A stretch of DNA of 64,000 bases from assembly GCA_029865605.1 (NCBI GenBank), contig JAOUGE010000005.1, positions 338 through 64,337 on the forward strand. The letters are read 5' to 3'. A program made the translations under genes and the position numbers. This DNA comes from Candidatus Berkelbacteria bacterium (GTDB lineage: Bacteria > Patescibacteriota > UBA1384 > DTJR01). Under the pieces are notes generated by a model. The model did not search any database. It was given only the letters and a program-made list of their open reading frames with translations, and had not been told where the DNA came from. Shown here piece after piece: positions 6,467-33,031 of the stretch; position 1 is the first letter of the stretch; each line of letters starts with the position of its first letter.

Positions 6467-6609
6467 TGGTAGCGGGGGTGGGATTTGGTCACAAGTCGGC
6501 GCGCATATTTTTCTTAAAGAGTGTGCCGCTCGCGACCCCGCCTCATCCCGCCGTGGCGGGACTCCGGCCTTCAAATCCCATCGCTCCCAATTCTCGGCTT
6601 ACGCCGATC
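6467..6609 (-). repeat. tRNA-3'-flank structured element, copy A (variant without the AGCA loop)
   Basis: Minus strand reads: after the tRNA-fMet CCA, hairpin TCGGC-GTAA-GCCGA; antisense TGGGAGCGA-TGGGATTTGAA; GGCCGGAG; hairpin TCCCGC-CACG-GCGGGA; GAGGCGGGGTCG; long imperfect hairpin; GTGAC. It ends in an exact 21-nt repeat of tRNA C56-CCA (6467-6487 = 6610-6630). Confidence 0.8.
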
Positions 6610-6686
<77 letters not shown>

Positions 6687-6812
6687 TTCTAGATGCTAGT
6701 ATAGCTTAATACTTAGTAACTTAAAAGTCAATCTCATAATCCTTTTATTTTAATTTGTGGCAAAGCCTTCATTCTGGTAATCTGGAATAAATTTGAGGTT
6801 AAAAGCCGATTA

Positions 6813-20746: not shown

Positions 20747-21055
20747 ATGAGGAAATTTTTAATTATATTTGCCGTTTTGGCTTTCAGTGCTCTTTCGGCA
20801 GTTATTGCTCGGGCTCAAACAGAGCCGCCAACCCCAAACCTCCCGATTGAGAGCGAGACGGCTACTTCAGCTTATGATGCGTATGAAGGTGACGATAGCT
20901 ATGCCTATTCCACCATAACTGTAACCTCACAAGAGGCAATAGATGATGCTGAAACAGGTTCAGAAATAGTTGTCCTTGGCGCCCTATCGCTTTTGGCAGG
21001 AATCGGACTTTTCTTAATCAAAAGATATTTTGACCTAAAGAAATACTCGATCTAG
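20747..21055 (+). CDS. Small secreted protein with a C-terminal sorting-signal-like tail
   Basis: Signal peptide MRKFLIIFAVLAFSALSAVIARA. The C-terminus is DAETG, then a hydrophobic stretch (SEIVVLGALSLLAGIGLFLI), then KRYFDLKK. Confidence 0.6.
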   Translation: MRKFLIIFAVLAFSALSAVIARAQTEPPTPNLPIESETATSAYDAYEGDDSYAYSTITVTSQEAIDDAETGSEIVVLGALSLLAGIGLFLIKRYFDLKKYSI

Positions 21056-21111
21056 GATATGGCTAACAGCTGCTAGCTGTAAGCTGATTTGATTATTGCT
21101 ATAATCAAGCT

Positions 21112-22578
21112 ATGGAAGATCCTTTTGGGTTGGCATCGCCCTCTAATTTTCGAAACCAAAAAGAAGGCAGAGCAAGCTCCCCCAAGAGATATTTTTGGGT
21201 TATGGGAGCTATGCTTGGTGTGATTACCCTTCTCTCTTTCGGGCTGTTTTTTGCGTTTAGGGGGAAGATTTCGGCTGATGTTAACGGGGCTAATTATCAA
21301 GCGAGTGTGGCTGTTTCCGGATTGCCCCAAGAGCTCACTTCGGGAGAGCAATTTCTTGCCTCTGTTTCTCTAAACAATAAGAAGGGTTCGACGATTCGCT
21401 CGGGCTTTATTTTAGTTCAGGGCTCTGGGGTGGACCTTAGCGAAACCCTATCGCTCTCGCAGAATCTGTCATCAAGCGAGGTCGGCTATGTTCGGCGCCT
21501 AAACTCCGAGGAGGAAGCTTTGTTTGAAGAAAAAGGGGAGAGCGGTTTTTATCTTTTCGTTGGGGATTTAGCCAAGGATCAAACCAAGTCAAATCAATTT
21601 AAAGGGACTGTTTCAGCGACCGGCAGCTCCCGGGTAAAGCTTGAGGTTAAATATTATGTTAAAAGCGATCTTCAGACGAACTGCGGTTTTCTAGGCCTTT
21701 CTAAGTGTTCACAGGAATCCAAATATACTCAAGTCGGTTACGCTGTCGCGACAGTTAGTCTGTCCGACCAGGGCAAAATTAAGCTAAGAGTGGGTTATAA
21801 TTTTATCACCTTGCCTTACGTTTTTACTCTGTCGGCCGCCCAGTCATTTTTGGGCAGTTTGGATAGCGGAAAATGGGCCTATTATTTTGACCCCACTTCG
21901 GGCGGTTACATCGATTTGAACTCGGGCAATAATGCCGAGAAGTTGAAGCCCGGCGTCGGCTTCTGGGTCAAAGTTGCCAAGGAGGGTGACTATGCTCTCC
22001 CCTCGCCTCGGGTGGACTCCAATATTTCCGAGAGCTATTCTGTGCCTTTAGCAATCGGCGAGAACCATATTGGCAACCCTTATCCGAAGCGGATAATCTG
22101 GTCGGGAACAGACATTTTAGTCCAAGAGCTGGATGACGCCGGCGAGGCAACCGGTATCAGCTATTCGCTCAAAACGGCAATCGATAATCAAATCATCGGC
22201 GGCGGTTATGTTATTAGCTATAAAAGTTTTACCGATTCTACTGGGACGACAAATGATCTCTCAAGCCTGATTGAGTATAAACCTTTGCCGCTCGGTTCGT
22301 ATTTGAATTCGACCATGGGACTGACTATTCAGAGTACAAAAATGGTCAACTTAGTTTTCCCCGGCCGCGCGGTTATCGCTCCGGGTGATCTTTTATCTGA
22401 CTCTGAAATGAGAAAAATTGAGGAGTGGATTATCAAGAACGGCCTTAATCAATTTGGTGATCCCTCCGGGACAGCTTATTCTTCAGGTACACCCCTGATT
22501 GACAGTGCTACCGGCTGGCCGATTGACCGCTATGATTATATTGTTTCAAAGCACTCCGATAGGCCGTGGAACCGTTGA
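21112..22578 (+). CDS. Hypothetical membrane-anchored extracellular protein
   Basis: 488-aa ORF with an N-terminal TM segment. TATAAT lies at about 21098. Confidence 0.5.
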   Translation: MEDPFGLASPSNFRNQKEGRASSPKRYFWVMGAMLGVITLLSFGLFFAFRGKISADVNGANYQASVAVSGLPQELTSGEQFLASVSLNNKKGSTIRSGFILVQGSGVDLSETLSLSQNLSSSEVGYVRRLNSEEEALFEEKGESGFYLFVGDLAKDQTKSNQFKGTVSATGSSRVKLEVKYYVKSDLQTNCGFLGLSKCSQESKYTQVGYAVATVSLSDQGKIKLRVGYNFITLPYVFTLSAAQSFLGSLDSGKWAYYFDPTSGGYIDLNSGNNAEKLKPGVGFWVKVAKEGDYALPSPRVDSNISESYSVPLAIGENHIGNPYPKRIIWSGTDILVQELDDAGEATGISYSLKTAIDNQIIGGGYVISYKSFTDSTGTTNDLSSLIEYKPLPLGSYLNSTMGLTIQSTKMVNLVFPGRAVIAPGDLLSDSEMRKIEEWIIKNGLNQFGDPSGTAYSSGTPLIDSATGWPIDRYDYIVSKHSDRPWNR

Positions 22579-22581
22579 GGC

Positions 22582-22878
22582 CTAAACATTAATGTTTAAA
22601 GCTTGCGAGATCCAAGCTCCTAACTTAAGGATGAAGTCTGTTTTGATGTTTACCAAATAAACAGCAATGATTATTATCACTAACAGACCGATCGTTAGAA
22701 GAATTTTTTTAATGTCTTTTTTGACTCGAGTCGCCTCTTCGCAGCGTTGCTCGAGTTCTCTTGGCTGCTCTTTATCTACAGCTTCGGCTCTTTCTTCAGC
22801 TCTAGCCATCTCTCTCTCTTGAGCGGCCGCTTGGGCCCTCAAGAGCTTTTTAATCTTATGCTTTTTCTTTTTACCCAT
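22582..22878 (-). CDS. Hypothetical protein with a charged N-terminus and a C-terminal TM segment
   Basis: 98-aa ORF that is K/R/E rich and then contains ILLTIGLLVIIIIAVYLV. Confidence 0.4.
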   Translation of the reverse strand: MGKKKKHKIKKLLRAQAAAQEREMARAEERAEAVDKEQPRELEQRCEEATRVKKDIKKILLTIGLLVIIIIAVYLVNIKTDFILKLGAWISQALNINV

Positions 22879-22880
22879 GA

Positions 22881-23129
22881 TTATTGAATACTATTTTTTA
22901 TTTGCTTTTTCAAATCTTCTTTTGGTTTATGTTCTTTGAGCTGTTTCTCTCTTTTGGCAGCGTCTTTTTTACTTAGGTAGCTTTCTAGGTAGACCAATTT
23001 GACAGGCAATTTAGATCTTGTTGATTTAACAAGTCCTTTTTTGTGTCTATTAATCCTGATTTTAACATCGGAGCATGAACCAATATACAGATCTCCGTTT
23101 GCGCATTTTAACGCATAAACTTGGTACAT
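22881..23129 (-). CDS. GIY-YIG nuclease domain protein
   Basis: Start moved to MYQVYALKCANGDLYIGSCSDVKIRINRH (GIY-YIG motifs). The longer track ORF would overlap tRNA-Cys. Confidence 0.7.
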   Translation of the reverse strand: MYQVYALKCANGDLYIGSCSDVKIRINRHKKGLVKSTRSKLPVKLVYLESYLSKKDAAKREKQLKEHKPKEDLKKQIKNSIQ

Positions 23130-23141
23130 AATTTTGGCTTT

Positions 23142-23215
23142 TGGAGGCATCGCCGGGATTTGCACCCGGGTAAACGGTTTTGCAGACCGTTGCCTGACTA
23201 CTCGGCCACGATGCC
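23142..23215 (-). tRNA. tRNA-Cys (GCA)
   Basis: Minus strand reads GGCATCG TG GCCGAGTAGTCAGGC A ACGGT CTGCAAA ACCGT TTAC CCGGG TGCAAAT CCCGG CGATGCC T CCA. Confidence 0.85.
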
Positions 23216-23244
23216 AAAATTATGTTTGTTATTTAAGCTATCAA

Positions 23245-23317
23245 GCGGTTTTGTCCTGCGGAGCAGGATCTAGCTTTGCTACGACAGACCGTTGTGTAAC
23301 CACTCCACCACCAGGCC
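23245..23317 (-). pseudogene. tRNA-Cys-like 5' half with a 31-nt insert in the anticodon loop; no T-arm or 3' acceptor strand
   Basis: Minus strand reads GGCCTGG TG GTGGAGTGGTTACAC A ACGGT CTG[31 nt]CAAA ACCGC. It shares CAACGGTCTG and CAAAACCG with the adjacent tRNA-Cys. Confidence 0.55.
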
Positions 23318-23391
23318 GACAGCCAAATCTTATCAGATTTAAGGCGAAAAAAAAGACCGCCTAAGCGGTATGGCGGCCCGGCTCGAGCCCC

Positions 23392-23619
23392 CTACGGGAA
23401 GTAGGGGAACTCGGCCGGGCCGTGGACGATCTTGACTTGGGCCAAGGCGCGGTTAATCACGCCGAAGGCCCAGTCGATCTGGGGCCAGATCACGAGCGTC
23501 AGGGACGCCCCGACTAAGGCCCAGACCCAGCACATGGGGCTGGGTGTTACGGGTTGGGCGGCTGCGAACGGCCACAGCGCCCACCACGCGAGAACGGCGA
23601 GAGCTGCCTTCCAGTTCAT
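23392..23619 (-). CDS. GC-rich small hydrophobic protein (islet 2)
   Basis: 75-aa ORF with AGGAG 7 nt upstream of the ATG and two TM-like segments. A GC hairpin GGCCCGGC...GCCGGGCC lies downstream. Confidence 0.5.
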   Translation of the reverse strand: MNWKAALAVLAWWALWPFAAAQPVTPSPMCWVWALVGASLTLVIWPQIDWAFGVINRALAQVKIVHGPAEFPYFP

Positions 23620-23825
23620 CAGTTGGCTCCTTCCGCTTCAGGGCGCGGCTACCCTAATGTCTTATCAAACATCGCGCCTTCGGAGTTCTACCCCCTCCAG
23701 CGTGACCATTATTTATACCATATTTCTTGATAAAAGTCAAGTCCTGACAGGTTAAAGTTATCGGATCAAAGTTTTTTACTGGGAATATTTACAAAAATGT
23801 ATTTTAAGATACAATTAGACCTGTT

Positions 23826-23900
23826 GCGGGTGTCGTATAGCGGTTATTACACGTGCTTGCCAAGCACGAGAGGGCGGTTCAATTCCGCTCACCCGCTCCA
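23826..23900 (+). tRNA. tRNA-Gly (GCC)
   Basis: GCGGGTG/CACCCGC acceptor stem, anticodon arm CGTGC-TTGCCAA-GCACG, T-arm GGCGG-TTCAATT-CCGCT, encoded CCA. Confidence 0.9.
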
Positions 23901-24039
23901 ACGAGATGGCCTTTAGGCCATTTTTCGTTGGAGCACCCTGCCGAGAATTGAAGGCCGGACCCCGCCACGGCGGGGGAGGCGGGGTCGCGAAATTTACCAG
24001 CAGGTAAATATTTGTGACCAATTCCGCTCACCCGCTCCA
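23901..24039 (+). repeat. tRNA-3'-flank structured element, copy C
   Basis: CGTTGGAGC is antisense of ...GCTCCAACG. It is followed by a linker, then GAATTGAA (antisense of the T-loop), GGCCGGA, hairpin CCCCGC-CACG-GCGGGG, GAGGCGGGGTCG, hairpin AAATTTACC-AGCA-GGTAAATATTT and GTGAC. It ends in a 21-nt exact repeat (24019-24039 = 23880-23900). Confidence 0.85.
23906..23925 (+). terminator. Terminator-like hairpin between tRNA-Gly and the antisense arm of element C
   Basis: ATGGCC-TTTA-GGCCAT followed by TTTTT. Confidence 0.6.
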
Positions 24040-24045
24040 GCCAGA

Positions 24046-24066
24046 ATCGCCGAAGGCGATTTTTTG
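24046..24066 (+). terminator. Intrinsic terminator after element C
   Basis: ATCGCC-GAA-GGCGAT followed by TTTTTT. Confidence 0.7.
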
Positions 24067-24156
24067 TTTGTTAATTCTTGACTTATTTTGAAATAAAAAG
24101 TACTATTTTCTCTTAACCCATGAAGTCCCCGAAGATGGGTTCTTTATGGGTGATAT

Positions 24157-25038
24157 TTGACATTACATTCCGCGCCGCCCGCAGGGCGGCGCACCAAGGA
24201 GGAACCGCTTTATGATTTACCCCGCCGAGGCGGACGGCCGCCGGTCAACGACGAGTGGCGAGTGGAGTACTGCGACGGCCTATGCTGCGGCGTCTCGGCG
24301 ACATACGAGTTGCACTGGGCACTGACCGGTAACTGCTTCGATATCGAAGCCGAGATCGTCCGCCACGTCGCTCTAGCAGACAAGAGCGACGAGGGGTGGG
24401 TAACCGTTCTGACTCGTACCGACGAGATCAGAGCATTGGCGGACAGCTCCGTCGCGCAGCTTGAACACATCAACCCGCTGGCGCCGGTCGGCTCGCGCGT
24501 CATCCTTCCGTGGCCGCGGGTTGACTGCGTCATCGACCGCGACGGAACGACGTCGCCTTACGCTAACCCCTTCGTCGAAGTCACGGGGGAAGCCCTGGCA
24601 GGCCGCAAGAAGGAGCACTGCTTCTTCACCCATATCCGGCCTGACGATGATGGCTGGGTGGCCGCGGCGCTTCAGGGTCCCAAGGGAACGGGGATCGGCG
24701 TGCGCTCCAAGTACGACAAGCGGTTGCCCTTCTTCTCTGTCTGGTTCTCCCGCACGGGCAAGAAGGGCGTGGCGGCAATCGGCCTTGAGCCGGGTCCACT
24801 GCCGCTCGGCGCGGCAGAGACAGATCGACTCGAGATGAGGGCTGTCCTCGAGGGGGGAGAGGAGATGACGCGCATGACTGAACTCTACTTCCTCGATACT
24901 TCCGAGAGGATGACAACCTTCCTCGAGAGCAACGGGATGAGCGCTGGCTCGCTTCCCAAGCAGTTCGAGAAGATCGGCACCGACAAGAAGGACTGGCCGA
25001 CGCTCTGCAGGGCGGCTGGTATCAACGGCAAGCGCTAG
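24157..25038 (+). CDS. GC-rich hypothetical protein (islet 3); 5' end probably frameshifted
   Basis: 293-codon ORF whose third positions are mostly G/C. No credible in-frame start: the listed TTG is itself the TTGACA box. AAGGAGG (24196-24202) plus ATG 24212 lie in another frame that stops at 24325. Confidence 0.5.
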   Translation: MTLHSAPPAGRRTKEEPLYDLPRRGGRPPVNDEWRVEYCDGLCCGVSATYELHWALTGNCFDIEAEIVRHVALADKSDEGWVTVLTRTDEIRALADSSVAQLEHINPLAPVGSRVILPWPRVDCVIDRDGTTSPYANPFVEVTGEALAGRKKEHCFFTHIRPDDDGWVAAALQGPKGTGIGVRSKYDKRLPFFSVWFSRTGKKGVAAIGLEPGPLPLGAAETDRLEMRAVLEGGEEMTRMTELYFLDTSERMTTFLESNGMSAGSLPKQFEKIGTDKKDWPTLCRAAGINGKR

Positions 25039-25090
25039 GGCGGCCGAAGGCCGCCCCGGATCTGATCACATCTGTGCGGGGGAACTCACT

Positions 25091-25246
25091 ATGCCGCGTA
25101 AGCCCCGCAAGGTTATCGAGGAAGAAAATGCGTGCGAGCGCCGCTCGCGCCCCAGGCGCTACGTCTCGGCCCGCTCTTATGTCCATCATAAGGATTGGGA
25201 AGACGGAGGCCGACGTAAGGCCAAAGGAAAGGAGCATTCCTGGTGA
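25091..25246 (+). CDS. Possible small Arg/Lys-rich protein (51 aa, GC-rich)
   Basis: ATG-to-TGA ORF MPRKPRKVIEEENACERRSRPRRY... with G/C-biased third positions. A strong terminator follows. It is below the ORF-track length cutoff. Confidence 0.35.
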   Translation: MPRKPRKVIEEENACERRSRPRRYVSARSYVHHKDWEDGGRRKAKGKEHSW

Positions 25247-25264
25247 GCACACGCTCACCCCCAC

Positions 25265-25300
25265 GGGCCCCGCCATTGGCGGGGCCCGAGTTGTTTTTGT
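25265..25300 (+). terminator. Intrinsic terminator closing islet 3
   Basis: GGGCCCCGCC-ATT-GGCGGGGCCC followed by a T-rich tract, GAGTTGTTTTTGTTT. Confidence 0.75.
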
Positions 25301-25433
25301 TTAATTTTTTGCTGGAGACTAGAGCCTAAAAGACTAGAGACTATTTTCCCCCCAAACAAACCCCGAAAATTAACCAAGAAAATGGGGTTTACCCCTTGAC
25401 AAGGTATTTTTTTTAAGTACACTAGTTGGCGTT

Positions 25434-25667
25434 ATGTTGAAAGCATTCTCCATCATAGAGTTGGTCACCGCGGTTTCGCTTATTGCAGCTGTGCTTTTGC
25501 AGCACCGCGGGACGGGACTCGGCGGGGCGTTTGCGTCGGAAGCGAACGCCTTCAGATCAAAAAGAGGGATTGAAAAATTTCTTTATAACTCGACGATCAC
25601 CATCGCCATTGTTTTGTGTGCGACCGTCCTAGCGCATCTTTTCTTGCGCCTCAAGCTTTCGGCCTAA
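25434..25667 (+). CDS. secG: Preprotein translocase subunit SecG
   Basis: 77 aa with two TM helices and LLQHRGTGLGGAFAS...FRSKRGIEKFL, typical of SecG. Confidence 0.75.
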   Translation: MLKAFSIIELVTAVSLIAAVLLQHRGTGLGGAFASEANAFRSKRGIEKFLYNSTITIAIVLCATVLAHLFLRLKLSA

Positions 25668-25675
25668 ATTTCCAA

Positions 25676-27019
25676 ATGGAAATACCACTGCGCGGCATCA
25701 GTCGCGTCAAACCTACATCGCTTATCTACATCTTAAAAAACTGGAAGAATTGCCTTAATTTTTTGGAGAAAGCGGTCATAATTCTTTTGGCTCTCTTTGT
25801 CGTTTTGACTTCCTGGCGCTGGGTTTTGGCGGCGGGAGAGTTTAAGGGGATTGTGCCGCGTCGCGGAGGTAGTTTTATTGAAGGGGTCGCAGGATTAAAT
25901 GTTGACGGTTTTGACCCAGGGCGTTTGACCAAGTCAGCCTTGGTAAAAATCGACCCAAGCGGTCAAGTAATGGCCGACGTTGCCCAGAGTTGGGAAGTAT
26001 CTGCCGATAAGCTCACTTACAAGTTTGTTATTAATCCAAAATATTCCGCTTATGAGTTAGCGGACATTTTGTCTAAAAACCCGACTTATCTTGGTGGAGC
26101 TATGCCTGAGGTTTTAGATAACAGTATTTTGGCTTTCAAACTTGATGAACCGGATAATGATTTTTTGCAGAACTTTTCAAAACCTATTTTTCCCTATGGT
26201 CCCTACAAAATTGATAAAAAAACAAAAAATGAGATTCGCTTGAAACCCAACAAGGATTATCATCTCCAGTCTCCATATATCGAAAAATTTGTTATTCGGG
26301 GCTATCAGGACCAAACCGCGCTTGAGAAGGCGGCAAAAAAGAACAAGATTACTGCCGCTATAGGCCTTGAGAGCTTGCCCAAGGATTGGCAGCAAGCAAA
26401 GACTATCTTAAGCAAAAAACACATTCTTTTTGTTAACAGTTCAAAATCATATCTCAAAAAAACTGCCATCAGAGAAAAAATTCTAAACGGTGAGAAACCG
26501 GAGACCATTCAGACTCTTGATCTTCTTGAGGTTAACGGGAACGGTCAGGATCAGGAATACGAGGCGCTTAAAGAAAAGCTCAAAGCTTCCGGCATTGATT
26601 TGAAGGTGAGACAGATAGGTCTGAAGGATGCGCTTTTGCAGGAATTGCCGAAAAGAAATTACGATCTTCTCTATATCTTGGTTGATGTGGGCGTGGCTTC
26701 TGATCCGCGTCAGCTCTGGAGTTCAACTCAGAGAAGCGGCGAGGGGCAAAATTTTGCCGAACTGGCCAATGCCGATATTGATGATTTGACTTATGAGTAC
26801 GCAAAGACCGATGATCCAACCAAAAAAGCAACGATTGCAGAAAAAATTAACGAGCTTATCGCCCGCGAAAAAGTTGCTGTTGAGTATAAGAATTTGGAAT
26901 TTAACTATGCTGTTTCTCCTAAGTTGAAAGGTTTTACTATTCCACAAGCGTCTTATTGCGAGTCTGGCCGGTTTGATTTTGCTTCTTCGTGGTATTTCTA
27001 CGAGAAGAAACAGCGATAG
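25676..27019 (+). CDS. Extracellular solute-binding protein (ABC family-5-like)
   Basis: Start set at ATG 25676. N-terminal TM/signal anchor. General resemblance to peptide/nickel-binding SBPs. Confidence 0.5.
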   Translation: MEIPLRGISRVKPTSLIYILKNWKNCLNFLEKAVIILLALFVVLTSWRWVLAAGEFKGIVPRRGGSFIEGVAGLNVDGFDPGRLTKSALVKIDPSGQVMADVAQSWEVSADKLTYKFVINPKYSAYELADILSKNPTYLGGAMPEVLDNSILAFKLDEPDNDFLQNFSKPIFPYGPYKIDKKTKNEIRLKPNKDYHLQSPYIEKFVIRGYQDQTALEKAAKKNKITAAIGLESLPKDWQQAKTILSKKHILFVNSSKSYLKKTAIREKILNGEKPETIQTLDLLEVNGNGQDQEYEALKEKLKASGIDLKVRQIGLKDALLQELPKRNYDLLYILVDVGVASDPRQLWSSTQRSGEGQNFAELANADIDDLTYEYAKTDDPTKKATIAEKINELIAREKVAVEYKNLEFNYAVSPKLKGFTIPQASYCESGRFDFASSWYFYEKKQR

Positions 27020-27072
27020 CCATAGGGCCTCGACAATCTGTTCTATATCTAGTAAAATTTTGCTAAAACAAA

Positions 27073-27319
27073 GGGCAAGTGGTGAAATGGTATACACGCT
27101 AGCTTCAGGAGCTAGTGACCGCAAGGCCGTGGCTTCGCGAGGGTGGAACTCGCGAAAATACCTTGTATTTGTGCCGAAGTGGTGGAATGGTAGACACGCA
27201 GCGTTCAGAGCGCTGTGAGCGCAAGCTCGTGAGAGTTCAAATCTCTCCTTCGGCACCATCTATAATTTCGAATCCGCAACATTAGTTTTTCGTTCCACCC
27301 GAAAAACGCTTGCCCACCA
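27073..27319 (+). pseudogene. Split outer tRNA-Leu(CAG) interrupted by a nested intact tRNA-Leu(CAG)
   Basis: The 5' part (27073-27132) has acceptor GGGCAAG, a D-arm, anticodon arm CTAGC-TTCAGGA-GCTAG and a variable arm. A T-loop remnant TTCGAATCCGCA lies at 27267-27278. A perfect 3' acceptor CTTGCCC-A-CCA lies at 27309-27319. Hairpins at 27134-27156 and 27285-27307 have complementary loops. Confidence 0.6.
27173..27258 (+). tRNA. tRNA-Leu (CAG), class II
   Basis: GCCGAAG/CTTCGGC acceptor stem, anticodon arm CAGCG-TTCAGAG-CGCTG, long variable arm, T-arm GAGAG-TTCAAAT-CTCTC, encoded CCA. Confidence 0.85.
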
Positions 27320-27341
27320 GAATTAAACTTTTAACTGATTT

Positions 27342-28178
27342 ATGGATCGAATTCCCTTTACCGTTACAATGCGCAAGGACCTTTTAAAAAGGGTCGATTC
27401 TTTAGTTGATGGCACGCAAATCAGAAATCGTTCCCACGCTCTTGAATCAATTGTTTCGAGCCATTTCAGGCCGAAGATTAAAAAAGCTCTTATCTTAGCC
27501 GGCGGCGAAGGGATTAAGATAAAGCCATTCACCTATGAGCTCCCCAAGACAATGCTGCCAGTTAAGGGACGGCCGATTTTTGAATACATCCTCGACCTGC
27601 TTCAGAAACAGGAGGTAAAAGAAATTTATGTAGCCATCGGCCATTTGGGCGGGAAAATCAAGGGGCAGTTTGGCGACGGGGCAAAGTACTCTGTGGATAT
27701 TACCTATCTTGAAGAAAAGGGTAGTCTCGGCACCGGCGGTGCCTTAAAGGCCGCTCTTCCCAAGATGGGCGACGACCCTTTCTTGATGATTTGGGGCGAT
27801 GAGTTGATTGATATTGATCTTGGGGACATGATTGATTTTCATATGACGCAAAAGCCGGTTATGACAATTGCCTTGACTTCTGTTTCTGACCCGACGGGCT
27901 ATGGGGCGGTCAAGCTAAGACGGGATATGGTTGTTGAACATATTGAGAAACCGGCAAAAACCAAGGATGTATCTCATCTTGTCAGTGCCGGCGTTCATGT
28001 TGTTGATCCGAGAATTGCCAGTTTTTTGCCTCGAAAGAAAACTTTTATGCTGGAAAGCGACATTATGTCTCAGCTGACTAAAAAAGGCCAGATCCGAGGT
28101 TATCTTTTTGAAGGACAGTGGTTTGATGTAGGAACTCCCGAAATTTACCAACGGGCAATAAGAGAGTGGAGAGGGTAA
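27342..28178 (+). CDS. Sugar-phosphate nucleotidyltransferase with an N-terminal ribbon-helix-helix-like domain
   Basis: N-terminus IPFTVTMRKDLLKRVDSLV...RSHALESIV looks CopG/NikR-like. It is followed by ALILAGGEGIKIKPFTYELPKTMLPV, an NTP-transferase G-rich loop. Confidence 0.65.
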   Translation: MDRIPFTVTMRKDLLKRVDSLVDGTQIRNRSHALESIVSSHFRPKIKKALILAGGEGIKIKPFTYELPKTMLPVKGRPIFEYILDLLQKQEVKEIYVAIGHLGGKIKGQFGDGAKYSVDITYLEEKGSLGTGGALKAALPKMGDDPFLMIWGDELIDIDLGDMIDFHMTQKPVMTIALTSVSDPTGYGAVKLRRDMVVEHIEKPAKTKDVSHLVSAGVHVVDPRIASFLPRKKTFMLESDIMSQLTKKGQIRGYLFEGQWFDVGTPEIYQRAIREWRG

Positions 28179-28282
28179 ATTCTGTATCTTGTATTTTGTA
28201 TCAGGTATCTAGTATTGAACGGTGAATACATGATACATGCTACTTGATACATGATACTTTTTCTTGTACAATCTAACCTGAT

Positions 28283-28368
28283 GCCGAGGTGGTGGAATTG
28301 GTATACACGATAGCTTGAGGAGCTATGCTCGCAAGAGCGTGCAGGTTCGAGTCCTGTCCTCGGCACCA
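28283..28368 (+). tRNA. tRNA-Leu (GAG), class II
   Basis: GCCGAGG/CCTCGGC acceptor stem, anticodon loop CTTGAGGAG, variable arm, T-arm GCAGG-TTCGAGT-CCTGT, encoded CCA. Confidence 0.9.
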
Positions 28369-28523
28369 AGCAGAACTGCCCTTGTGGCAGTTTTTTGCTT
28401 GGTGCCCCGTGGACTCGAAGGCCGGACCTCGCCACGGCGGGGGTTCGAGGGGTGGCACCTGAGAAGGGTCGCGAGGCCCGCCAGCAGGCGGGAACTTGTG
28501 ACCGAGTCCTGTCCTCGGCACCA
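28369..28523 (+). repeat. tRNA-3'-flank structured element, copy D
   Basis: TGCTTGGTGCC-CCGT-GGACTCGAA is antisense of the CCA end and T-loop. It is followed by GGCCGGA, hairpin CCTCGC-CACG-GCGGGG, an extra segment TTCGAGGGGTGGCACC, GAGAAGGGTCG, hairpin CCCGCC-AGCA-GGCGGG and GTGAC. It ends in a 21-nt exact repeat (28503-28523 = 28348-28368). Confidence 0.85.
28375..28396 (+). terminator. Terminator-like hairpin between tRNA-Leu(GAG) and the antisense arm of element D
   Basis: ACTGCC-CTTG-TGGCAGT followed by TTTTTT. Confidence 0.65.
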
Positions 28524-28530
28524 CAAAGAT

Positions 28531-28550
28531 CCCGCTTTAGCGGGGTTTTT
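28531..28550 (+). terminator. Intrinsic terminator after element D
   Basis: CCCGC-TTTA-GCGGG followed by GTTTTT. Confidence 0.7.
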
Positions 28551-28616
28551 CTATGTATTAGGGTTGAAAAATTTTGTGAAAAAAGCTAAAATTACTCCAG
28601 AAGGTCGATAACTTAA

Positions 28617-28868
28617 ATGGAGATGAATATGGCAGACACAAAAATTGGTGTGATAACACACTACTTTGACAAAATTGGGGTTGGGATCATCAAGCTTGAG
28701 GCGCCGCTAAAGAAAGGCGAAACAATTAAGATTGGCGAGGTGGAACAAGTAGTTGATTCAATGCAGGTTGACCATAAGGATATTGATGAAGGCCAACCGG
28801 GTCAGGAAGTCGGCGTCAAAGTCAGCGCCAAGGTTCGCGAAGGCGAGGAAGTTTATAAGGTAGAGTAG
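28617..28868 (+). CDS. Small beta-barrel protein resembling translation-factor domain II
   Basis: 83 aa: IGVITHYFDKIGVGIIKLEAPLKKGETIKIG...GQEVGVKV. Three in-frame ATGs at the start leave the start ambiguous. Confidence 0.5.
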   Translation: MEMNMADTKIGVITHYFDKIGVGIIKLEAPLKKGETIKIGEVEQVVDSMQVDHKDIDEGQPGQEVGVKVSAKVREGEEVYKVE

Positions 28869-28930
28869 GGGGCGGCTAGCTTGGGCTAGAAGCTCATCGG
28901 CCTTTGGCTGACAGCGGGATTTTTAGATGT

Positions 28931-29005
28931 GGGCGGTTAGCTCAACGGTAGAGCATTTGGTTTACATCCAAGGGGTTAAAGGTTCGAATCCTTTACCGCC
29001 CACCA
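28931..29005 (+). tRNA. tRNA-Val (UAC)
   Basis: GGGCGGT/ACCGCCC acceptor stem, anticodon loop TTTACAT, T-arm AAAGG-TTCGAAT-CCTTT, encoded CCA. No flank element; tRNA-Phe follows 25 nt later. Confidence 0.9.
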
Positions 29006-29030
29006 TCGGCTTGCATGAATGGTTTGAAAC

Positions 29031-29106
29031 GCCGGGGTAGCTCAGTGGTTAGAGCACTGGTCTGAAAAACCAGGTGTCGACAGTTCGATTCTGTCCCCCG
29101 GCACCA
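29031..29106 (+). tRNA. tRNA-Phe (GAA)
   Basis: GCCGGGG/CCCCGGC acceptor stem, anticodon arm CTGGT-CTGAAAA-ACCAG, T-arm GACAG-TTCGATT-CTGTC, encoded CCA. Confidence 0.9.
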
Positions 29107-29240
29107 GGCGGAATTGCGAAGCAATTATTTGACTGGTGCGGCGAACCGAGAATCGAAGGCCGGAGCGCGACGGCGCGAGGCGGGGTCGAGCGCAAAATCA
29201 GCAGATTTTGACGGGTGACCGATTCTGTCCCCCGGCACCA
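29107..29240 (+). repeat. tRNA-3'-flank structured element, copy E
   Basis: Hairpin AATTGC-GAA-GCAATT, then CTGGTGC-GGCGAACCG-AGAATCGAA (antisense), GGCCGGA, hairpin GCGC-GACG-GCGC, GAGGCGGGGTCG, hairpin CAAAATC-AGCA-GATTTTG and GTGAC. It ends in a 21-nt exact repeat (29220-29240 = 29086-29106). Confidence 0.85.
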
Positions 29241-29443
29241 TCGCGTATGTCCTCATCTGCCAGAAAAGGTAGATGTGGAGACGCGATTTGACGGGGGCGG
29301 CAGGTCGATAACCTGAGAACCTGCCGACAAGAATCGAAACGCGCAGGCTCGACGGAGCCGAGCGGGGGTCGCGAGGCCCGCCAGCAGGCGGGAACTTGTG
29401 ACCGATTTCCTGCCTGCCGGCAGGCAGGTGTCCCTCTGCACCA
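29241..29443 (+). repeat. tRNA-3'-flank structured element, copy F (tandem, diverged, with a palindrome insert)
   Basis: Second unit directly after copy E: AGAATCGAA, hairpin GGCTC-GACG-GAGCC and GAGCGGGGGTCG. Hairpin 2 is identical to that of copy D. After GTGAC comes a Phe-like 3' end, GATT[CCTGCCTGCCGGCAGGCAGG palindrome]TGTCCCTCTGCACCA. Confidence 0.75.
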
Positions 29444-29469
29444 CTTACCCCGCATGAGCGGGGTTCAAT

Positions 29470-29943
29470 GTGAAATTAAAAATGCAAAACGTCACGGCTT
29501 TTTTGGGTGAAATATTCAGCTTTTTCAAAGAAAAAGTTTTTGATTTTGAGAAGTTTTTTAGTTGGGGTTATCTTAATGCGTCAGCGTCCACAATTCTCCG
29601 GTATTGGATAGTTTACGTCGTGATTTTTGCTCTTTTAATAGTGGTCGGACTATTTATTCAGTTTTATTTTGGGCGCAAAACCCTGCCGAAATTCAGAAAA
29701 AAATTTTATAAGCGTTTGGGCGACTTTCTCGTTTACCCGCCGCTTGTTTATCTTTTTCTTATCACTGTAAGAAGGGCCGGGCTGGAAGGCTTGAATAAGA
29801 GGATTCTTCCAGTTTCTCTTGCGCTTATATGGTTGATTTGGCTGGGCTTTCTGGTATACTACAGAATAGCCGTTGTTTCAAAACTCCAAAAGATGTATTT
29901 GGAACAGCGGAGAAAGGAAAAATATATAAGAAATGGTAGTTAA
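29470..29943 (+). CDS. Hypothetical membrane protein
   Basis: 157-aa ORF with 3-4 TM helices. Confidence 0.45.
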   Translation: MKLKMQNVTAFLGEIFSFFKEKVFDFEKFFSWGYLNASASTILRYWIVYVVIFALLIVVGLFIQFYFGRKTLPKFRKKFYKRLGDFLVYPPLVYLFLITVRRAGLEGLNKRILPVSLALIWLIWLGFLVYYRIAVVSKLQKMYLEQRRKEKYIRNGS

Positions 29944-31018
29944 ATCGAAGGATGTTACGGAAGAGAAGGCAGGACCAATGGACGCTCTGATCGAGGAACA
30001 CGACGGGGATTTGGTCCCTTTTAATGCTGGAGACGTTGTTGACTGCAAGGTGATTCAAGTTTCTCGCTCCAGAGTCTTATGTGATGTGGGCGGTTTAACC
30101 TATGGCTTTGTACCGGAAAAAGAATTTTCCTTTGACACAAAGGATTTAAAGCCCGGCGATGTTATCTCGGCTAATGTGATGGCAATGGAAAACAAAGACG
30201 GCTATGTTGTTTTGAGCCTTCGGCGTGCCGATAGAAATCGTCTTTGGGGAGTCTTGACTGAGAAGAAGGACAAAGGCGTCTTGGTTGATGTCAAGGTTGT
30301 TGGTGCCAATCGCGGAGGACTGATGGTTGAAGCCGGCGGGATTCAGGGCTTTTTGCCGGTCTCCCAGCTTTCGGTTGAGCACTATCCTCGGGTTGAAGGC
30401 GGCGATCCCAACCAGATCTTACAGAGACTAAGGAAGCTGGTAGGCGAGGCTCTTCAAGTGAAGATAATCTCCGTAGATAAAAATGAGGAAAAGCTGATTT
30501 TTTCTGAAAAACAGGCGGTTAGCGAGTCGATCGGCGACCTTGGCGAGCAATTTAGCGTTGGTCAGGTGGTCGAAGGCACGATAACCGGCATCGCTCCGTT
30601 TGGCCTGTTTGTAAATCTCGGCGGCATCGAAGGTTTAATTCATATTTCGGAGGTTTCTTGGGATCATGTTGATGACTTGTCGGGGATGTACAAGGTAGGG
30701 CAGAAAGTCAAGGCGAAGGTAGCAAAGATTGAAAATGGGCGGATATCCCTCTCGCTTAAGAGACTCTTGCCTGATCCTTGGATTGAAGAGATGAAAAAGC
30801 TGAAAGTCGGTGAGAAAGTTGAGGGAGAGATAACCAGAGTTACTGCCTATGGCGCCTTCGTCAGGTTGAAGAATAATTTAGATGGTTTGGTCCATGCCTC
30901 TCAAGTTGGGGGAGATGTTGCTAAGATTAAGGCATTACAGGTTGGTGACAAGAGGCGATTTGAGGTTATCGAGTTGAAGCCGGAGTCCCGAAGAATAGGG
31001 TTGAGGCTTTTAGAATAA
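29933..31018 (+). CDS. rpsA: 30S ribosomal protein S1 (short, four S1 domains)
   Basis: Repeated S1 OB-fold motifs: GDVVDCKVIQV, GFLPVSQLS, GQVVEGTITGIAPFGLFVNL, GEKVEGEITRVTAYGAFVRL. Confidence 0.85.
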   Translation: MVVKSKDVTEEKAGPMDALIEEHDGDLVPFNAGDVVDCKVIQVSRSRVLCDVGGLTYGFVPEKEFSFDTKDLKPGDVISANVMAMENKDGYVVLSLRRADRNRLWGVLTEKKDKGVLVDVKVVGANRGGLMVEAGGIQGFLPVSQLSVEHYPRVEGGDPNQILQRLRKLVGEALQVKIISVDKNEEKLIFSEKQAVSESIGDLGEQFSVGQVVEGTITGIAPFGLFVNLGGIEGLIHISEVSWDHVDDLSGMYKVGQKVKAKVAKIENGRISLSLKRLLPDPWIEEMKKLKVGEKVEGEITRVTAYGAFVRLKNNLDGLVHASQVGGDVAKIKALQVGDKRRFEVIELKPESRRIGLRLLE

Positions 31019-31162
31019 TGCGGAGGGCTAAAATGCCCGGAAAGTTTGGAAAATAGCGCTTCTGTCCGCTTAAAGGGGTGGATAGGGCGCTGTTTTCAAA
31101 GGCAAGCAGCTTGACATTAAACCCGCTTCAGCGGGTCAAGTGCCTGTAAGGAGGCCGCTAAG

Positions 31163-33031
31163 ATGCGCCCGAAACTGGTAGTAGTTCTTACTGTCTTTGC
31201 GGCCGCGCTAGCGGCCGCCACGGTTAACGCAGACGTCGTCGTGGCCATTCATGGCCACTCGAACTTCTCGGATGGTATGAAGCCCCTGCGCGAGACGTAC
31301 GTCGAAATGTGCTCGGGCGGGGCCGAGGTGGCGATCGTAACCGACCATACCGAGGTGATCGATCTGCCGCAGATTCCCGCTTCTTTTCTCAAGATGGAGT
31401 TTGCCAGGTACAGCCATTGGGAAATGGCTTCTGGCGCACTCCTGAAGGAGGCGGGACTGGCCAACTGGAAGGCGGCCTACCGGAGTCTCCAGACCGAGAG
31501 GGTGGTAGTGATCCCGGCAATGGAGGTCGGGCTAGTAGCCCGAAAGACGGATGCGTTGTGGGATCGCCGCTGCCACTTCCTGTTCATCGGCGGGTCGGTC
31601 GAGGATAACACCTACGATCAAGTGATGCAGTGGGCATCGGCCTATACCACCGAGAAAGGGGCGGTGGAATGTCTCAAGAAACTCACCGCCCTGGCACAGG
31701 AGCGCGGTGCGTTGCTTGTTGCTGCTCATCCAACTAACTCAGGCTGGCTGATAGACTCTAGCCTTCTTGAGTTGGTGAACGGGATTGAGGCAATGAATCA
31801 CGATCTCCTCCCTGGCGCCAGCATAAGAGGAGATACTCCCGAGAACCTCCTCAAGACAATGCCGGCGGTTCCTTCTTCCCCTGTGGTAACGGCGGGGCTG
31901 GACTGGCACGGTGTCATCGGCCAGTCGGGATTCAGGGACATTTTCCGGCGCTTCACTGTCGTCCTGACAGACGAGAGGACACCAACGGGAATTGTGGGCG
32001 CTCTTCAAGCGCGGCGAAGTTATGCCGCTCTCGGCGACGCTCGGATCACCCGCGGCAAGGAGCTCATCGGCGGCGAGGTCGGCTTCGACCAGCCGTTTGA
32101 GATGGGCTTCGAGGGGGTAAGGGGCAACAAGGCCTGGCTCGTCTGCCGCTCGAGCGATAGTGCCTACCGCGAGTTCAAGCCAGTCTCGCTTAAGAGCGGC
32201 ACTCTCAACATCAAGAACCTCGGGAAGGCCCTGGGGCCAGCGATGACGTCCGGCGGCTGGATCGTCGTTGCTGCCCCTGCTGGCACGCCCCAGATCATCA
32301 CCTCCGGCATCAAGGTCAATCCGGCCGAAGCCGGCGGTGGCGAACCCTCCTTCGTCTTCTACGACAAGCCGCTCGGCCCTGGACAGCTGGCTAGGCCCAA
32401 GAAACCTGGCTTCTGGGATCAGGTCCGAGGGGGGCTGGGAGATATCGTTGCGGGAGCGCTCTCCGGTGGGATGGATCTACCTGGGATGCGCATCCGCATT
32501 ACTCCGGGCAGTAGCATGCCGGGCGAAGGCATACCGCAAGTGCCAGCCGGGGGCACAGTACCCCAGGGCGGGCAGGCCGGGCTCGGTGAGGATTTCAGCA
32601 ACTGGCCGATGGAGTATAGCGGGGTGCACCCCACCGCGCGGGGACAAACCCGCGATCAGGTTGTAGCGACCCTCTACGTGAACCCAGAGGCGCAGCAGGG
32701 GCTGCTTGCGTTCCAACTCAACGATCTGCAGCAGCAGATCCCAGTTACGCTGCCCGGCGTGTTCGGTAACGGAGGCTTCTGGCGATCCTCTTGGCAGTCG
32801 AAGCTCCCGTCTCGTCCGAGGTTTATGCATCCCCAACCCAGTTCACTCGGGGGGGGTCCGCGACCTGCCTGCCTTGAGGGTTGGCATCTCGGTCACAGTT
32901 ACAGGGATAAGAACGACCCCGCTACATACCACTTCGATCTGACTCTTAGAGCCCTTGCCGATGTACCTGAGCGTGTGCCTGTCGCGGTAGGGTACTGGGA
33001 GATGCGCATGGAGCTTCTCCGCGTCCGCTAG
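31163..33031 (+). CDS. GC-rich secreted PHP-domain protein with a G/P-rich C-terminal region (islet 4)
   Basis: AAGGAGG lies 7 nt upstream of the ATG. Signal peptide MRPKLVVVLTVFAAALAAATVNA. PHP-type metal motifs HGHSNFSDG and IVTDH. Composition is far more GC-rich than the flanks. Confidence 0.7.
   Translation: MRPKLVVVLTVFAAALAAATVNADVVVAIHGHSNFSDGMKPLRETYVEMCSGGAEVAIVTDHTEVIDLPQIPASFLKMEFARYSHWEMASGALLKEAGLANWKAAYRSLQTERVVVIPAMEVGLVARKTDALWDRRCHFLFIGGSVEDNTYDQVMQWASAYTTEKGAVECLKKLTALAQERGALLVAAHPTNSGWLIDSSLLELVNGIEAMNHDLLPGASIRGDTPENLLKTMPAVPSSPVVTAGLDWHGVIGQSGFRDIFRRFTVVLTDERTPTGIVGALQARRSYAALGDARITRGKELIGGEVGFDQPFEMGFEGVRGNKAWLVCRSSDSAYREFKPVSLKSGTLNIKNLGKALGPAMTSGGWIVVAAPAGTPQIITSGIKVNPAEAGGGEPSFVFYDKPLGPGQLARPKKPGFWDQVRGGLGDIVAGALSGGMDLPGMRIRITPGSSMPGEGIPQVPAGGTVPQGGQAGLGEDFSNWPMEYSGVHPTARGQTRDQVVATLYVNPEAQQGLLAFQLNDLQQQIPVTLPGVFGNGGFWRSSWQSKLPSRPRFMHPQPSSLGGGPRPACLEGWHLGHSYRDKNDPATYHFDLTLRALADVPERVPVAVGYWEMRMELLRVR

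Follow-up and report, generated by a model that had tools for sequence, protein, structure and literature searches.

Why does an intact tRNA-Cys gene stand between a truncated tRNA-Cys and a gene for a very small GIY-YIG protein? The question is raised by a 64,000-nucleotide (nt) stretch of DNA from a Candidatus Berkelbacteria bacterium (GenBank assembly GCA_029865605.1, contig JAOUGE010000005.1; this whole stretch is hereafter called the window), the gene content of which is typical of the Candidate Phyla Radiation (CPR)/Patescibacteria. On its minus strand, a tRNA-Cys 5' fragment interrupted in the anticodon loop by a 31-nt insert precedes the intact tRNA-Cys, which is followed by an open reading frame (ORF) of 82 amino acids (aa). 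As argued below from comparative data, an older tRNA-Cys gene was probably split by a homing-endonuclease-like selfish cassette consisting of a replacement tRNA-Cys and the GIY-YIG gene, and the fragment is probably the left remnant of that older gene.

Split tRNA genes around a GIY-YIG gene

The order of the three parts, given by the first-pass annotation as fragment, intact tRNA-Cys and GIY-YIG ORF starting at 23129, agrees with the sequence and with the ARAGORN, Rfam and Pfam results (Table 1). Its description of the fragment was also accurate. The acceptor 5' strand (GGCCTGG) is followed by a D arm (GTGG-AGTGGTT-ACAC) with the canonical G18G19 and by the Cys anticodon arm (5' strand of the stem, ACGGT, then C32, U33 and G34), and neither a T arm nor a 3' acceptor strand is found 3' of the fragment in the window. 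The insert, described as hairpin-forming, consists of two hairpins (TAGC-AAA-GCTA and TCCTGC-TCC-GCAGGA, within TC(G)TAGC-AAA-GCTAGA + TCCTGC-TCC-GCAGGA); moreover, it is a member of a CPR-wide repeat family and not a private insertion, and its pattern is expected to occur by chance 0.03 times per window. The fragment and the intact tRNA-Cys share 76% identity over 33 nt. Because their D-stem differences are compensatory (GTG/CAC in the fragment versus GCC/GGC in the intact tRNA-Cys), the fragment appears to derive from a distinct, once-functional tRNA-Cys. Thus, what had been called a diverged paralog is indeed the 5' part of a tRNA-Cys; it is rather the 5' remnant of a different, formerly functional allele, the 3' partner of which is present in a relative (locus L002, below).

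The intact tRNA-Cys is separated from the GIY-YIG ORF by 12 nt, so that the ATG begins at the 13th base past the tRNA, and the stop codon of the ORF lies 2 nt from the ATG of the next gene. The GIY-YIG gene was left uncalled in the ENA copy of the contig. The fragment transcript does not fold more stably than its shuffled versions (z = -0.69), which lends no support to a particular RNA fold apart from the two hairpins. When positions 21000-29500 were scanned permissively with Rfam, no group I intron (E<=10), ribozyme or other family was detected at the fragment, and the only find beyond the intact tRNAs was a sub-threshold pseudo-tRNA-Leu.

Homologous loci were collected by searching metagenomes with the protein alignment alone, which returned 80 loci with 84 GIY-YIG genes. 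A tRNA gene lies within 100 nt of 46 of these 84 genes and is on the same strand in all 46 cases (24 Cys, 10 Ser, 5 Leu, 2 Ile, 2 Met, 2 Tyr and 1 Lys); by our rough, uncomputed estimate for a ~1-Mb genome with about 45 tRNAs, the chance of a tRNA that near is ~2-3%. The 31-nt insert or a counterpart of it (hereafter, the unit) occurs within 300 nt of 31 of the 84 genes, typically 6-40 nt 5' of the ATG and exactly between ...GGTCTG and CAAAAC.... The insertion site, G34/C35, is shared by at least 13 distinct GIY-YIG loci. The first-pass annotation had considered a nuclease-driven rearrangement conceivable and the link weak. That suspicion was reasonable and is supported by the comparative recurrence, which argues for a strong link between the GIY-YIG gene and the tRNA fragments.

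The canonical layout begins with nt 1-34 of an old tRNA-Cys (ending in ...GGTCTG), the unit, CAAAAC with a few further nt and a spacer of 5-25 nt. The GIY-YIG ORF follows, then a spacer of 0-25 nt, an intact tRNA-Cys and a spacer of about 10-60 nt. On the right, the array is closed by ...GTCTG, a second unit and CAAAAC... leading into the T arm and the acceptor 3' strand, that is, nt 35-74 of the old tRNA. The unit and CAAAAC stub of the window is thus also present at the metagenome GIY-YIG loci. Where the order is GIY-YIG to tRNA, 5' parts of the adjacent tRNA lie upstream and 3' parts downstream. Among 43 distinct loci, unit-bearing remnants were found on both sides at 9, only upstream at 12 and only downstream at 3. 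The inserted DNA at other loci measures about 350-450 bp. The internal order is tRNA to GIY-YIG in Berkelbacteria and GIY-YIG to tRNA in most other lineages. At tRNA-Leu and tRNA-Ile loci the unit sits in the D loop, at position 12/13, and at a tRNA-Met locus (L163) another hairpin repeat takes its role. The association also holds in the reverse direction: three loci found by the unit pattern alone (L034, L124 and L125) carry close GIY-YIG homologues within 124 nt of the unit. At L124, the 5' fragment (GGCGCGG) matches the 3' fragment (CCGCGCC) and not the intervening intact tRNA (GGCGCAG/CTGCGCC). Because the canonical layout recurs and the L124 remnants pair with one another, we conclude that a split older tRNA gene encloses the nuclease gene and an intact tRNA.

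Several related arrangements were also encountered. At L009 (positions 1-250), tandem ~100-nt repeats 5' of the GIY-YIG gene each combine a variant hairpin insert with a tRNA-Cys 3' half (CAAAACCTCTATGCGCGGGTTCGATTCCCGCTTGCGCCTCA), and the final repeat copy abuts the ATG of the ORF; ARAGORN detected no intact tRNA in the contig part examined. At L006 (4224-4600), a second small GIY-YIG gene of 88 aa is more distantly related (56 bits against the subfamily profile); 34 nt separate it from tRNA-Arg/tRNA-Lys, which lie on the other strand, and it has no unit. GIY-YIG subfamilies of the 'GYVYILTN...' type are present in the unit-bearing loci L043, L087 and L105, where they are not adjacent to units.

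In the closest relatives (L002-L005), the gene order is the same as in the window and the GIY-YIG protein is 84% identical; the DNA surrounding the locus shows only 77-79% identity between the window and L002. At L002, a terminator and promoter-like block is followed by two tRNA-Cys fragments, the intact tRNA-Cys, the GIY-YIG gene and a 3' remnant. Fragment A, the 5' part of a tRNA-Cys, is interrupted twice, by 38 nt within the D stem and by 31 nt at 34/35; fragment B is identical to the window fragment at 32 of 33 positions and bears a 31-nt insert of its own at 34/35. Right after the GIY-YIG stop codon, L002-L005 contain GGCAACGGTCTG[31-nt insert]CAAAACCGCGTACGCCGGTT[31-nt insert]CAATTCCGGCCCAGGCCTCCA, so that in the L002 remnant one insert interrupts the anticodon loop at 34/35 and another, of the same kind, the T loop at 55/56. 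It ends in CCAGGCC-T-CCA, the acceptor end that the annotation had predicted for the missing 3' half. No such half exists in the window itself: matches to CCAGGCC-N-CCA across the 64 kb, with one mismatch allowed, were at chance level, and none had a T arm. The right-hand (3') remnant would have been deleted from the window after the invasion.

More distant Berkelbacteria were found with a neighbouring 488-aa protein as the query. In L210/L211, at 53% identity to the window in this protein, the locus begins (order given for L210) with a promoter-like block and two tRNA-Cys fragments, the first with another insert and the second, GGCGTCGTGGCCGAGTAGTCAGGCAACGGTCTG, with a unit; the intact tRNA-Cys and the GIY-YIG gene come next, and a unit-bearing 3' remnant ends the series. 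Three tRNA-Cys alleles can be followed across these loci. In the window, X is the intact gene and Z the fragment; L002 has Y both intact and as a fragment, and Z as a fragment; in L210, Y is intact and X is present as a unit-bearing 5' fragment. Alleles X, Y and Z have exchanged the intact and fragment roles, since the L210 fragment GGCGTCGTGGCCGAGTAGTCAGGCAACGGTCTG is identical at 32 of 33 positions to the 5' half of the window's intact tRNA-Cys. The conservation of the Z fragment (32/33) is like that of working tRNAs (72/74 for Y between L002 and L210), and the units of the two Z fragments, counted by hand, differ at 7 of 31 positions. These sequences are most simply explained if different incoming cassettes disabled Z in the window lineage and in the L002 lineage, in separate and recent events; selection may also act on the Z fragment.

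In a still more distant relative, L212 (47% identity in the neighbouring protein), a lone canonical tRNA-Cys occupies the corresponding locus; a search at E<=1 detected no GIY-YIG ORF there, and both unit and fragment are lacking. L212 would represent an uninvaded (empty) site, though in a distant relative with an inverted tRNA.

The intact tRNA-Cys genes of the window (23142-23215), L002 (684-757) and L210 (6252-6325) share two deviations, G55 in the T loop (UGCAAAU) and AG where the D loop would otherwise have G18G19. The old fragments and the L212 tRNA-Cys (6145-6218) are canonical, with GG and UUCAAAU or UUCAAUU. Together, the two deviations would alter both partners of the G18:U55 tertiary contact, and they could be linked to immunity of the cassette tRNA.

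The double-hairpin unit and the GIY-YIG protein

A pattern scan for the unit, with one genome per species, returned 119 loci. About 45 of these contain genuine copies, in AT-rich CPR genomes (Roizman-, Gottesman-, Levy-, Uhr- and Saccharibacteria and unclassified Patescibacteria). The rejected matches (~60%), from high-GC genomes, were attributed to chance because they lack the TC/GA frame and the AT-rich CPR context. Eight contigs of one assembled genome bear unit copies. The unit, of 30 or 31 nt, has the form TC-NN-GC-RRR-GC-NN-GA followed by TC-NN-GC-YYY-GC-NN-GA, and its reverse complement has the same form. Covariation was tested on 63 distinct units chosen by their constant positions alone, against 2000 shuffles. 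At the four free pair positions, pairing is seen in 58-61 of the 63 units (26-48 expected from the shuffles, with maxima of 40-54); each position shows three or four Watson-Crick types, and G-T pairs are no commoner than mismatches. Because the stems covary and G-T pairs are not favoured, the hairpins are under selection, probably at the DNA level. The unit is therefore a short structured repeat with many copies within one genome and across genomes, similar in this respect to repetitive extragenic palindromic (REP) sequences and miniature inverted-repeat transposable elements.

Inside tRNA-like sequence, units are always in a fragment beside an intact tRNA of the same type, and they occupy the loops, at 34/35, 55/56 and in the D loop. 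A small tRNA intron was rejected as an explanation of the unit: after in silico excision at about 55 loci, ARAGORN rebuilt no tRNA, and its sole match was an artefact in which the unit abutted nt 1-2 of an already intact tRNA. The GIY-YIG gene is the only recurrent gene neighbour of units that was seen; no systematic search of the unit-bearing genomes for transposases was made.

Solitary intergenic units are often flanked by direct repeats of 7-16 nt or sited in arrays of heptamer repeats (L033, L043, L046, L047, L052, L055, L060, L067, L068, L087 and L105). Examples are tgaatta|unit|tgaatta, a 16-nt repeat with one mismatch at L060, and arrays of agattta, gaaatta or aaagatc, in which the units stand exactly at the repeat boundaries. 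The direct repeats may be target duplications of variable length or footprints of repeated insertion.

The GIY-YIG domain (Pfam PF01541; 53.8 bits versus a cutoff of 22.6) covers residues 1-69 of the 82-aa protein and is its sole Pfam domain; homologues across the subfamily are likewise single-domain proteins of 82-86 aa. In 14 homologues, the motif residues Y5, Y15, H29, E49 and E61 are invariant and R25 is nearly so. With its catalytic domain and conserved motif residues, the protein belongs to the GIY-YIG superfamily. Its sequence is 100% identical to that of a protein encoded in a Candidatus Berkelbacteria assembled genome. Among solved structures, its profile matches 1zg2 (BH0048; E 2.4e-11) and 1ywl (EF2693; E 1.8e-8), both UPF0213 proteins, and more distantly I-TevI (7e-4) and SLX1 (9e-3). 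The only NCBIfam match, at 22.6 bits versus a cutoff of 56, is a sub-threshold one to a group I intron endonuclease family. Size and UPF0213 similarity place the protein among the minimal GIY-YIG proteins of UPF0213/YhbQ type. Stand-alone minimal GIY-YIG domains, which lack auxiliary domains, fall in the Slx1 cluster (PMC1564403). Among the window, L002 and L210, the nonsynonymous divergence (dN) is about 0.08 and synonymous sites are saturated; because dN is low against saturated synonymous sites, the gene is functional and has long been under strong purifying selection.

Clustering with UPF0213/YhbQ-type proteins, lack of the fragment in relatives and unrelated loci for the homologues had been named as observations that would refute a nuclease link. 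The outcome is split: the clustering occurs, whereas the fragment is conserved in relatives and the homologues stand at tRNA genes with fragments, not at unrelated loci.

Other features of the window

The coordinates of the locus and of related features elsewhere in the window are collected in Table 1.

Table 1 Features of the tRNA-Cys/GIY-YIG locus and other tRNA-associated features of the window
Feature	Position	Strand	Remarks
Intrinsic terminator	23346..23369	minus	ACCGCTTAGGCGGT, then T run; ends the upstream 75-aa GC-rich ORF; kept in L002
Extended -10-like element TGaTAAGAT	23327..23335	minus	~10 nt 5' of the fragment
tRNA-Cys 5' remnant, allele Z, GGCCTGGTGGTGGAGTGGTTACACAACGGTCTG	23285..23317	minus	Reads GGCCTGG-TG-GTGG-AGTGGTT-ACAC-A-ACGGT-CUG
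31-nt double-hairpin unit, TCGTAGCAAAGCTAGATCCTGCTCCGCAGGA	23254..23284	minus	Between G34 and C35
Stub, CAAAACCGC	23245..23253	minus	Anticodon-loop C35-A38 and stem 3' strand ACCGC; end of the old gene
AT-rich spacer, 29 nt	23216..23244	minus	
Intact tRNA-Cys(GCA), allele X	23142..23215	minus	Encoded CCA; ARAGORN; Rfam tRNA 61.7 bits
GIY-YIG gene, 82 aa	22881..23129	minus	Pfam PF01541, E 2.4e-14
Truncated tRNA-Leu(CAG) copy	27073-27135		Rfam tRNA 24.9 bits, below threshold
Pseudo-tRNA-Leu region upstream of tRNA-Leu(CAG)	27073-27172		Keeps acceptor 5' strand, D, anticodon and variable arms
3'-end duplicate regions of tRNA-Gly, tRNA-Leu(GAG) and tRNA-Phe	23826-24039, 28283-28523, 29031-29240		
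Part of the ~95-nt module	6530-6574		Beside tRNA-Met 6610-6686
Palindromic repeat CCTGCCTNCCGGCAGGCAGG	29366-29445		In a degenerate 3'-end copy, after an exact extra 40-nt module end (29366-29405 = 28466-28505)
GC-rich patches	23320-23650, 24150-25300, about 31000-33000, about 48000-49000		58-68% GC; genome roughly 45%

The terminator is the upstream limit of the tRNA-Cys/GIY-YIG transcription unit. A 38-nt block around the -10-like element is 97% identical between the window and L002, against 77-79% regionally, and a similar element, cTGgTAAGAT, precedes the uninvaded tRNA-Cys of L212; a simple sigma-70 scan gave no call at the window element. This element is probably the promoter of the old tRNA-Cys and today would drive the fragment, the new tRNA and the nuclease gene as a single unit. 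The final ~12 nt of the spacer (aaacataatttt), directly 5' of the intact tRNA-Cys, probably mark the left edge of the incoming cassette, because they also occur in L002 and L210 immediately 5' of the intact tRNA-Cys there.

The tRNA-Leu(CAG) locus contains the second truncated same-anticodon copy that the annotation had noted. In the pseudo-tRNA-Leu, the T arm is replaced by a hairpin (TTCGCGAG-GGTGGAA-CTCGCGAA), and the same hairpin follows the tRNA-Gly of L210. The tRNA-Leu 5' fragment upstream of Leu(CAG) in L210 has a different insert, in the D arm (CCCCAG...CGGGG). None of these loci (27073-27172 in the window; 6706-6735 and 8591-8700 in L210) has a GIY-YIG gene.

At tRNA-Gly, tRNA-Leu(GAG) and tRNA-Phe, the last 21 nt of the tRNA itself (C56 of the T loop to CCA) are duplicated 134-155 nt downstream. 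The DNA between the tRNA and the duplicate contains a terminator-like hairpin and the inverted complement of that hairpin, as well as a conserved ~95-nt module that abuts C56 (GAATCGAAGGCCGG..., a hairpin, GGGTCGCG, a hairpin with an AGCA loop, ...GTGAC); the tRNA-Gly of L210 is likewise followed by ...CTTGTGACC and a 3'-end duplicate. The module looks like a second, ORF-less element family that inserts at 55/56 and supplies a new tRNA 3' end. The small palindromic repeat CCTGCCTNCCGGCAGGCAGG also lies within tRNA remnants at L002 (649-668), L035 (about 1770-1790) and L190 (1694-1718 and 2700-2724).

The first two GC-rich patches contain the 75-aa ORF and a 293-aa ORF with a weak DUF4432 match, and both ORFs are in the ENA copy of the contig. 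L002 has the 75-aa ORF as well; L210 has neither ORF, and its tRNA-Cys, tRNA-Gly and SecG adjoin. An assembly chimera was rejected as the source of the patch beside the fragment, as the 75-aa ORF and the terminator were found in independent assemblies. The GC-rich patches are probably acquired DNA inserted among tRNA genes.

Proposed origin of the locus, alternatives and known systems

We infer the activity and specificity of the nuclease, the agent that mobilises the unit and the recombination route as follows. The cassette, composed of tRNA-Cys allele X and the 82-aa GIY-YIG gene and bracketed by unit copies, would have split the old canonical tRNA-Cys (allele Z) between G34 and C35, with the unit marking the junction. 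An Slx1/UPF0213-like nuclease, probably acting as an oligomer, would cut structured DNA at a hairpin loop of the tRNA gene or at a unit. Repair would be templated by a cassette-bearing copy, or a circular or ectopic copy would recombine at the unit, producing the order old 5' part, unit, stub, cassette, stub, unit, old 3' part. Through repeated invasions older 5' fragments would pile up upstream, and in the window the right-hand remnant would later have been lost by deletion. Invasion of the cell's tRNA-Cys would be harmless because the cassette brings an intact tRNA-Cys; afterwards the cassette could not be lost, because it holds the sole working copy. The stubs inside both units are compatible with recombination at the unit as well as with break repair from a cassette-bearing allele. 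We favour the homing-like route because the insertion points are loop apices without a sequence consensus, the structure of the unit is conserved and Slx1-type enzymes are structure-specific.

Several observations weigh against such a cassette. The closest solved relatives of the protein are UPF0213 proteins and not characterised homing endonucleases, with weak matches only to I-TevI and the group I intron endonuclease family, and the protein lacks the DNA-binding domain that accompanies the nuclease domain in Seg-like enzymes. About 38 of the 84 homologues have no tRNA within 100 nt, most units are solitary, and other tRNA loci of the window bear fragments without a nuclease gene. The tRNA of the cassette itself retains the same anticodon-loop site, which poses a problem of self-immunity. 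Neither the unit pattern nor the protein family was found in viral contigs, which gives no sign of a vector, and the tRNA-Cys of the empty site L212 is inverted relative to the neighbouring gene. Finally, long retention at one locus under strong purifying selection, with synonymous sites saturated between relatives, appears to suit a resident gene more; homing genes, being short-lived, would not be expected to persist in this way.

Indeed, the GIY-YIG protein could be a resident, host-useful operon partner of tRNA-Cys, for instance a housekeeping structure-specific nuclease. It would then be a bystander, or act in trans at most, while the hairpin repeats alone made the fragments through loop insertion and partial duplication. 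We regard this as unlikely, though it is the alternative that most needs weighing. The UPF0213 type of the protein, its strong purifying selection and stable position across Berkelbacteria relatives with saturated synonymous divergence, and the invariably same-strand tRNA, as in an operon, all agree with it, as do the solitary majority of units and the fragments or hairpin modules at the window tRNAs Gly, Leu-GAG, Phe, Met and Leu-CAG, where no GIY-YIG gene is present. A resident gene does not, however, account for an ORF enclosed by 5' and 3' remnants that match each other, as seen at several tRNA types and in many lineages not related to one another, for the fixed short distance from the unit to the ATG, for the joint lack of gene, unit and fragments in the uninvaded L212, or for the exchange of tRNA alleles at the locus. 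Ordinary tandem duplication of tRNA-Cys with random decay, random insertion and a coincidental GIY-YIG neighbour is the least probable reading that we considered. Tandem tRNA duplicates and pseudogenes are common, and the fragment and the intact tRNA have the anticodon arm in common; yet the insert comes from a conserved, covarying repeat family, the architecture recurs at 40 or more distinct loci, and the fragment represents another allele, which differs in its stem by compensatory changes and is 97% conserved in a relative.

The fragment might also be a functional exon of a split or intron-containing tRNA-Cys, with the unit as a new small intron or trans-splicing handle and the GIY-YIG protein as a processing nuclease. 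The unit lies precisely in tRNA loops (34/35, 55/56 and the D loop), the fragment is conserved like a working tRNA (32/33), the old 5' and 3' parts keep complementary acceptor strands in L002 and L124, and a prokaryotic Slx1-like GIY-YIG protein carries a fused tRNA methyltransferase homologue (PMC1564403). We nevertheless consider this highly improbable: removal of the unit restored no complete tRNA at about 55 loci, an intact tRNA with the same anticodon always adjoins, the window has no 3' half, several remnants are damaged by extra inserts and truncations, and the unit stems do not favour G-U pairs, which points to a constraint on DNA. A protein-spliced or split tRNA gene was rejected on the same grounds (no excision product, no 3' half, an intact cognate tRNA alongside), and so was a group I intron in the anticodon loop, as the insert is only 31 nt and has no Rfam match and the T arm and 3' acceptor are lacking. 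A further reading, that the fragment is the attachment-site scar of an integrase-driven island in tRNA-Cys, with the GC-rich neighbouring DNA as the island, has an even slighter chance of being correct. tRNA genes are classical integration sites, and the fragment lies at the edge of the GC-rich patch (23320-23650 and 24150-25300) that is absent from L210; but the flanking ORFs that were scanned contain no integrase or recombinase domain, the remnant is a unit-bearing 5' part instead of a 3' direct repeat, and the layout of fragment, unit, tRNA and GIY-YIG gene is present in L210 without the GC-rich genes and at dozens of unrelated loci. With a cassette of about 0.4 kb elsewhere, a tRNA-targeting integrase island was rejected.

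Returning to the homing-endonuclease-like cassette, truncated same-anticodon tRNAs beside intact ones in CPR genomes would be footprints of one recurring element with an unusual selfish strategy, in which an essential single-copy tRNA gene is broken while its substitute is delivered. Essential RNA genes of tiny genomes could then tolerate repeated invasions, recorded as a fossil series of stacked fragments. The cassette offers a testable role for minimal UPF0213/Slx1-like GIY-YIG proteins, and the unit could be the structured DNA on which they act. Programs that find tRNA genes or filter pseudogenes should allow for unit-bearing fragments. Cassette tRNAs, moreover, need not have the sequence of the ancestral allele, a point of importance for tRNA-based phylogeny and for decoding inferences in CPR. 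A broader proposal goes further, and we advance it only tentatively, as something that may well prove wrong: the 82-86-aa GIY-YIG protein and the 30-nt unit might together form an extremely small, previously unrecognised autonomous mobile element of CPR, in which the nuclease recognises hairpin or cruciform DNA and invades loop apices of tRNA genes and perhaps of rRNA genes, the replacement tRNA acts as an addiction device and solitary units are non-autonomous derivatives. If so, this would be the first biological role for the UPF0213/prokaryotic Slx1-like family.

The arrangement of a GIY-YIG cassette in split tRNA genes of CPR was not found described in full-text literature searches. A term search of a recent survey of tRNA introns (group I) in Patescibacteria found GIY-YIG, tRNA-Cys and the T loop nowhere mentioned. 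Likewise, the searchable literature yielded no function or mobile-element context for UPF0213/YhbQ proteins. These share with the present protein a single GIY-YIG domain of about 80-100 aa and a place in the Slx1 cluster (Dunin-Horkawicz et al. 2006), and differ, as described, in that the subfamily analysed here goes together with a hairpin repeat and with tRNA genes that have been split.

A close precedent among mobile GIY-YIG genes is SegB, located in the tRNA gene cluster of T4-like phages, which is reported to amplify tRNA loci segmentally (PMC13096335; review, PMC2988022). Both SegB and the gene studied here are outside introns and sited among tRNA genes. SegB spreads with flanking tRNA DNA through break repair, and Seg proteins have about 200 aa or more, with DNA-binding domains. 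In contrast, the present protein is an 82-aa catalytic domain alone; the element resides in CPR chromosomes, with no viral copies found, and, whereas SegB is intergenic, splits a tRNA in a loop, leaves remnants, brings a replacement tRNA and is bracketed by double hairpins.

Elements with tRNA-targeting integrases likewise insert in a tRNA gene, supply tRNA sequence and leave a partial copy as a flank. The cassette has no integrase, measures ~0.35-0.45 kb, supplies a whole tRNA or its 5' part rather than the 3' end, and inserts at loop apices (D loop, 34/35 and 55/56), each time with a hairpin unit. In fractured genes, a free-standing endonuclease gene is inserted and leaves the host gene in two pieces (Dassa et al. 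2009, PMC2677866). The breakage of a host gene by such an endonuclease gene is common to both systems. The function of the fractured gene, however, is reportedly restored at the protein level by split inteins, whereas here a duplicate intact tRNA restores function and the old pieces appear dead.

The unit itself invites comparison with REP sequences and their REP-associated tyrosine transposases (RAYTs), and with IS200/IS605 elements and their miniature derivatives. These too are short palindromic repeats with many copies per genome, a few beside a small nuclease gene and many solitary, in which hairpin structure outweighs sequence. Here, however, the enzyme is a GIY-YIG protein and not an HUH/Y1 transposase, the unit consists of tandem 15-nt hairpins whose reverse complement has the same form, and the flanking duplications vary from 7-16 nt up to most of a tRNA.

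Closest in host range are insertions in CPR rRNA genes, described in passages of PMC11270868 as neither group I nor group II introns, as encoding GIY-YIG proteins and as lying mostly at the tops or bases of stem-loops; the same passages judge the GIY-YIG genes in them to be sparse and outside a homing context. On that account, both systems place GIY-YIG ORFs in non-intron insertions of structured RNA genes of CPR. The passages on these insertions differ from the present case in that they deal with rRNA genes, with no mention of tRNA (PMC11270868), and describe no replacement gene copy or double-hairpin unit. None of the systems compared unites the four traits of this locus: a bare 82-aa GIY-YIG domain, a double-hairpin bracket, entry into tRNA genes at loop apices and delivery of a replacement tRNA.

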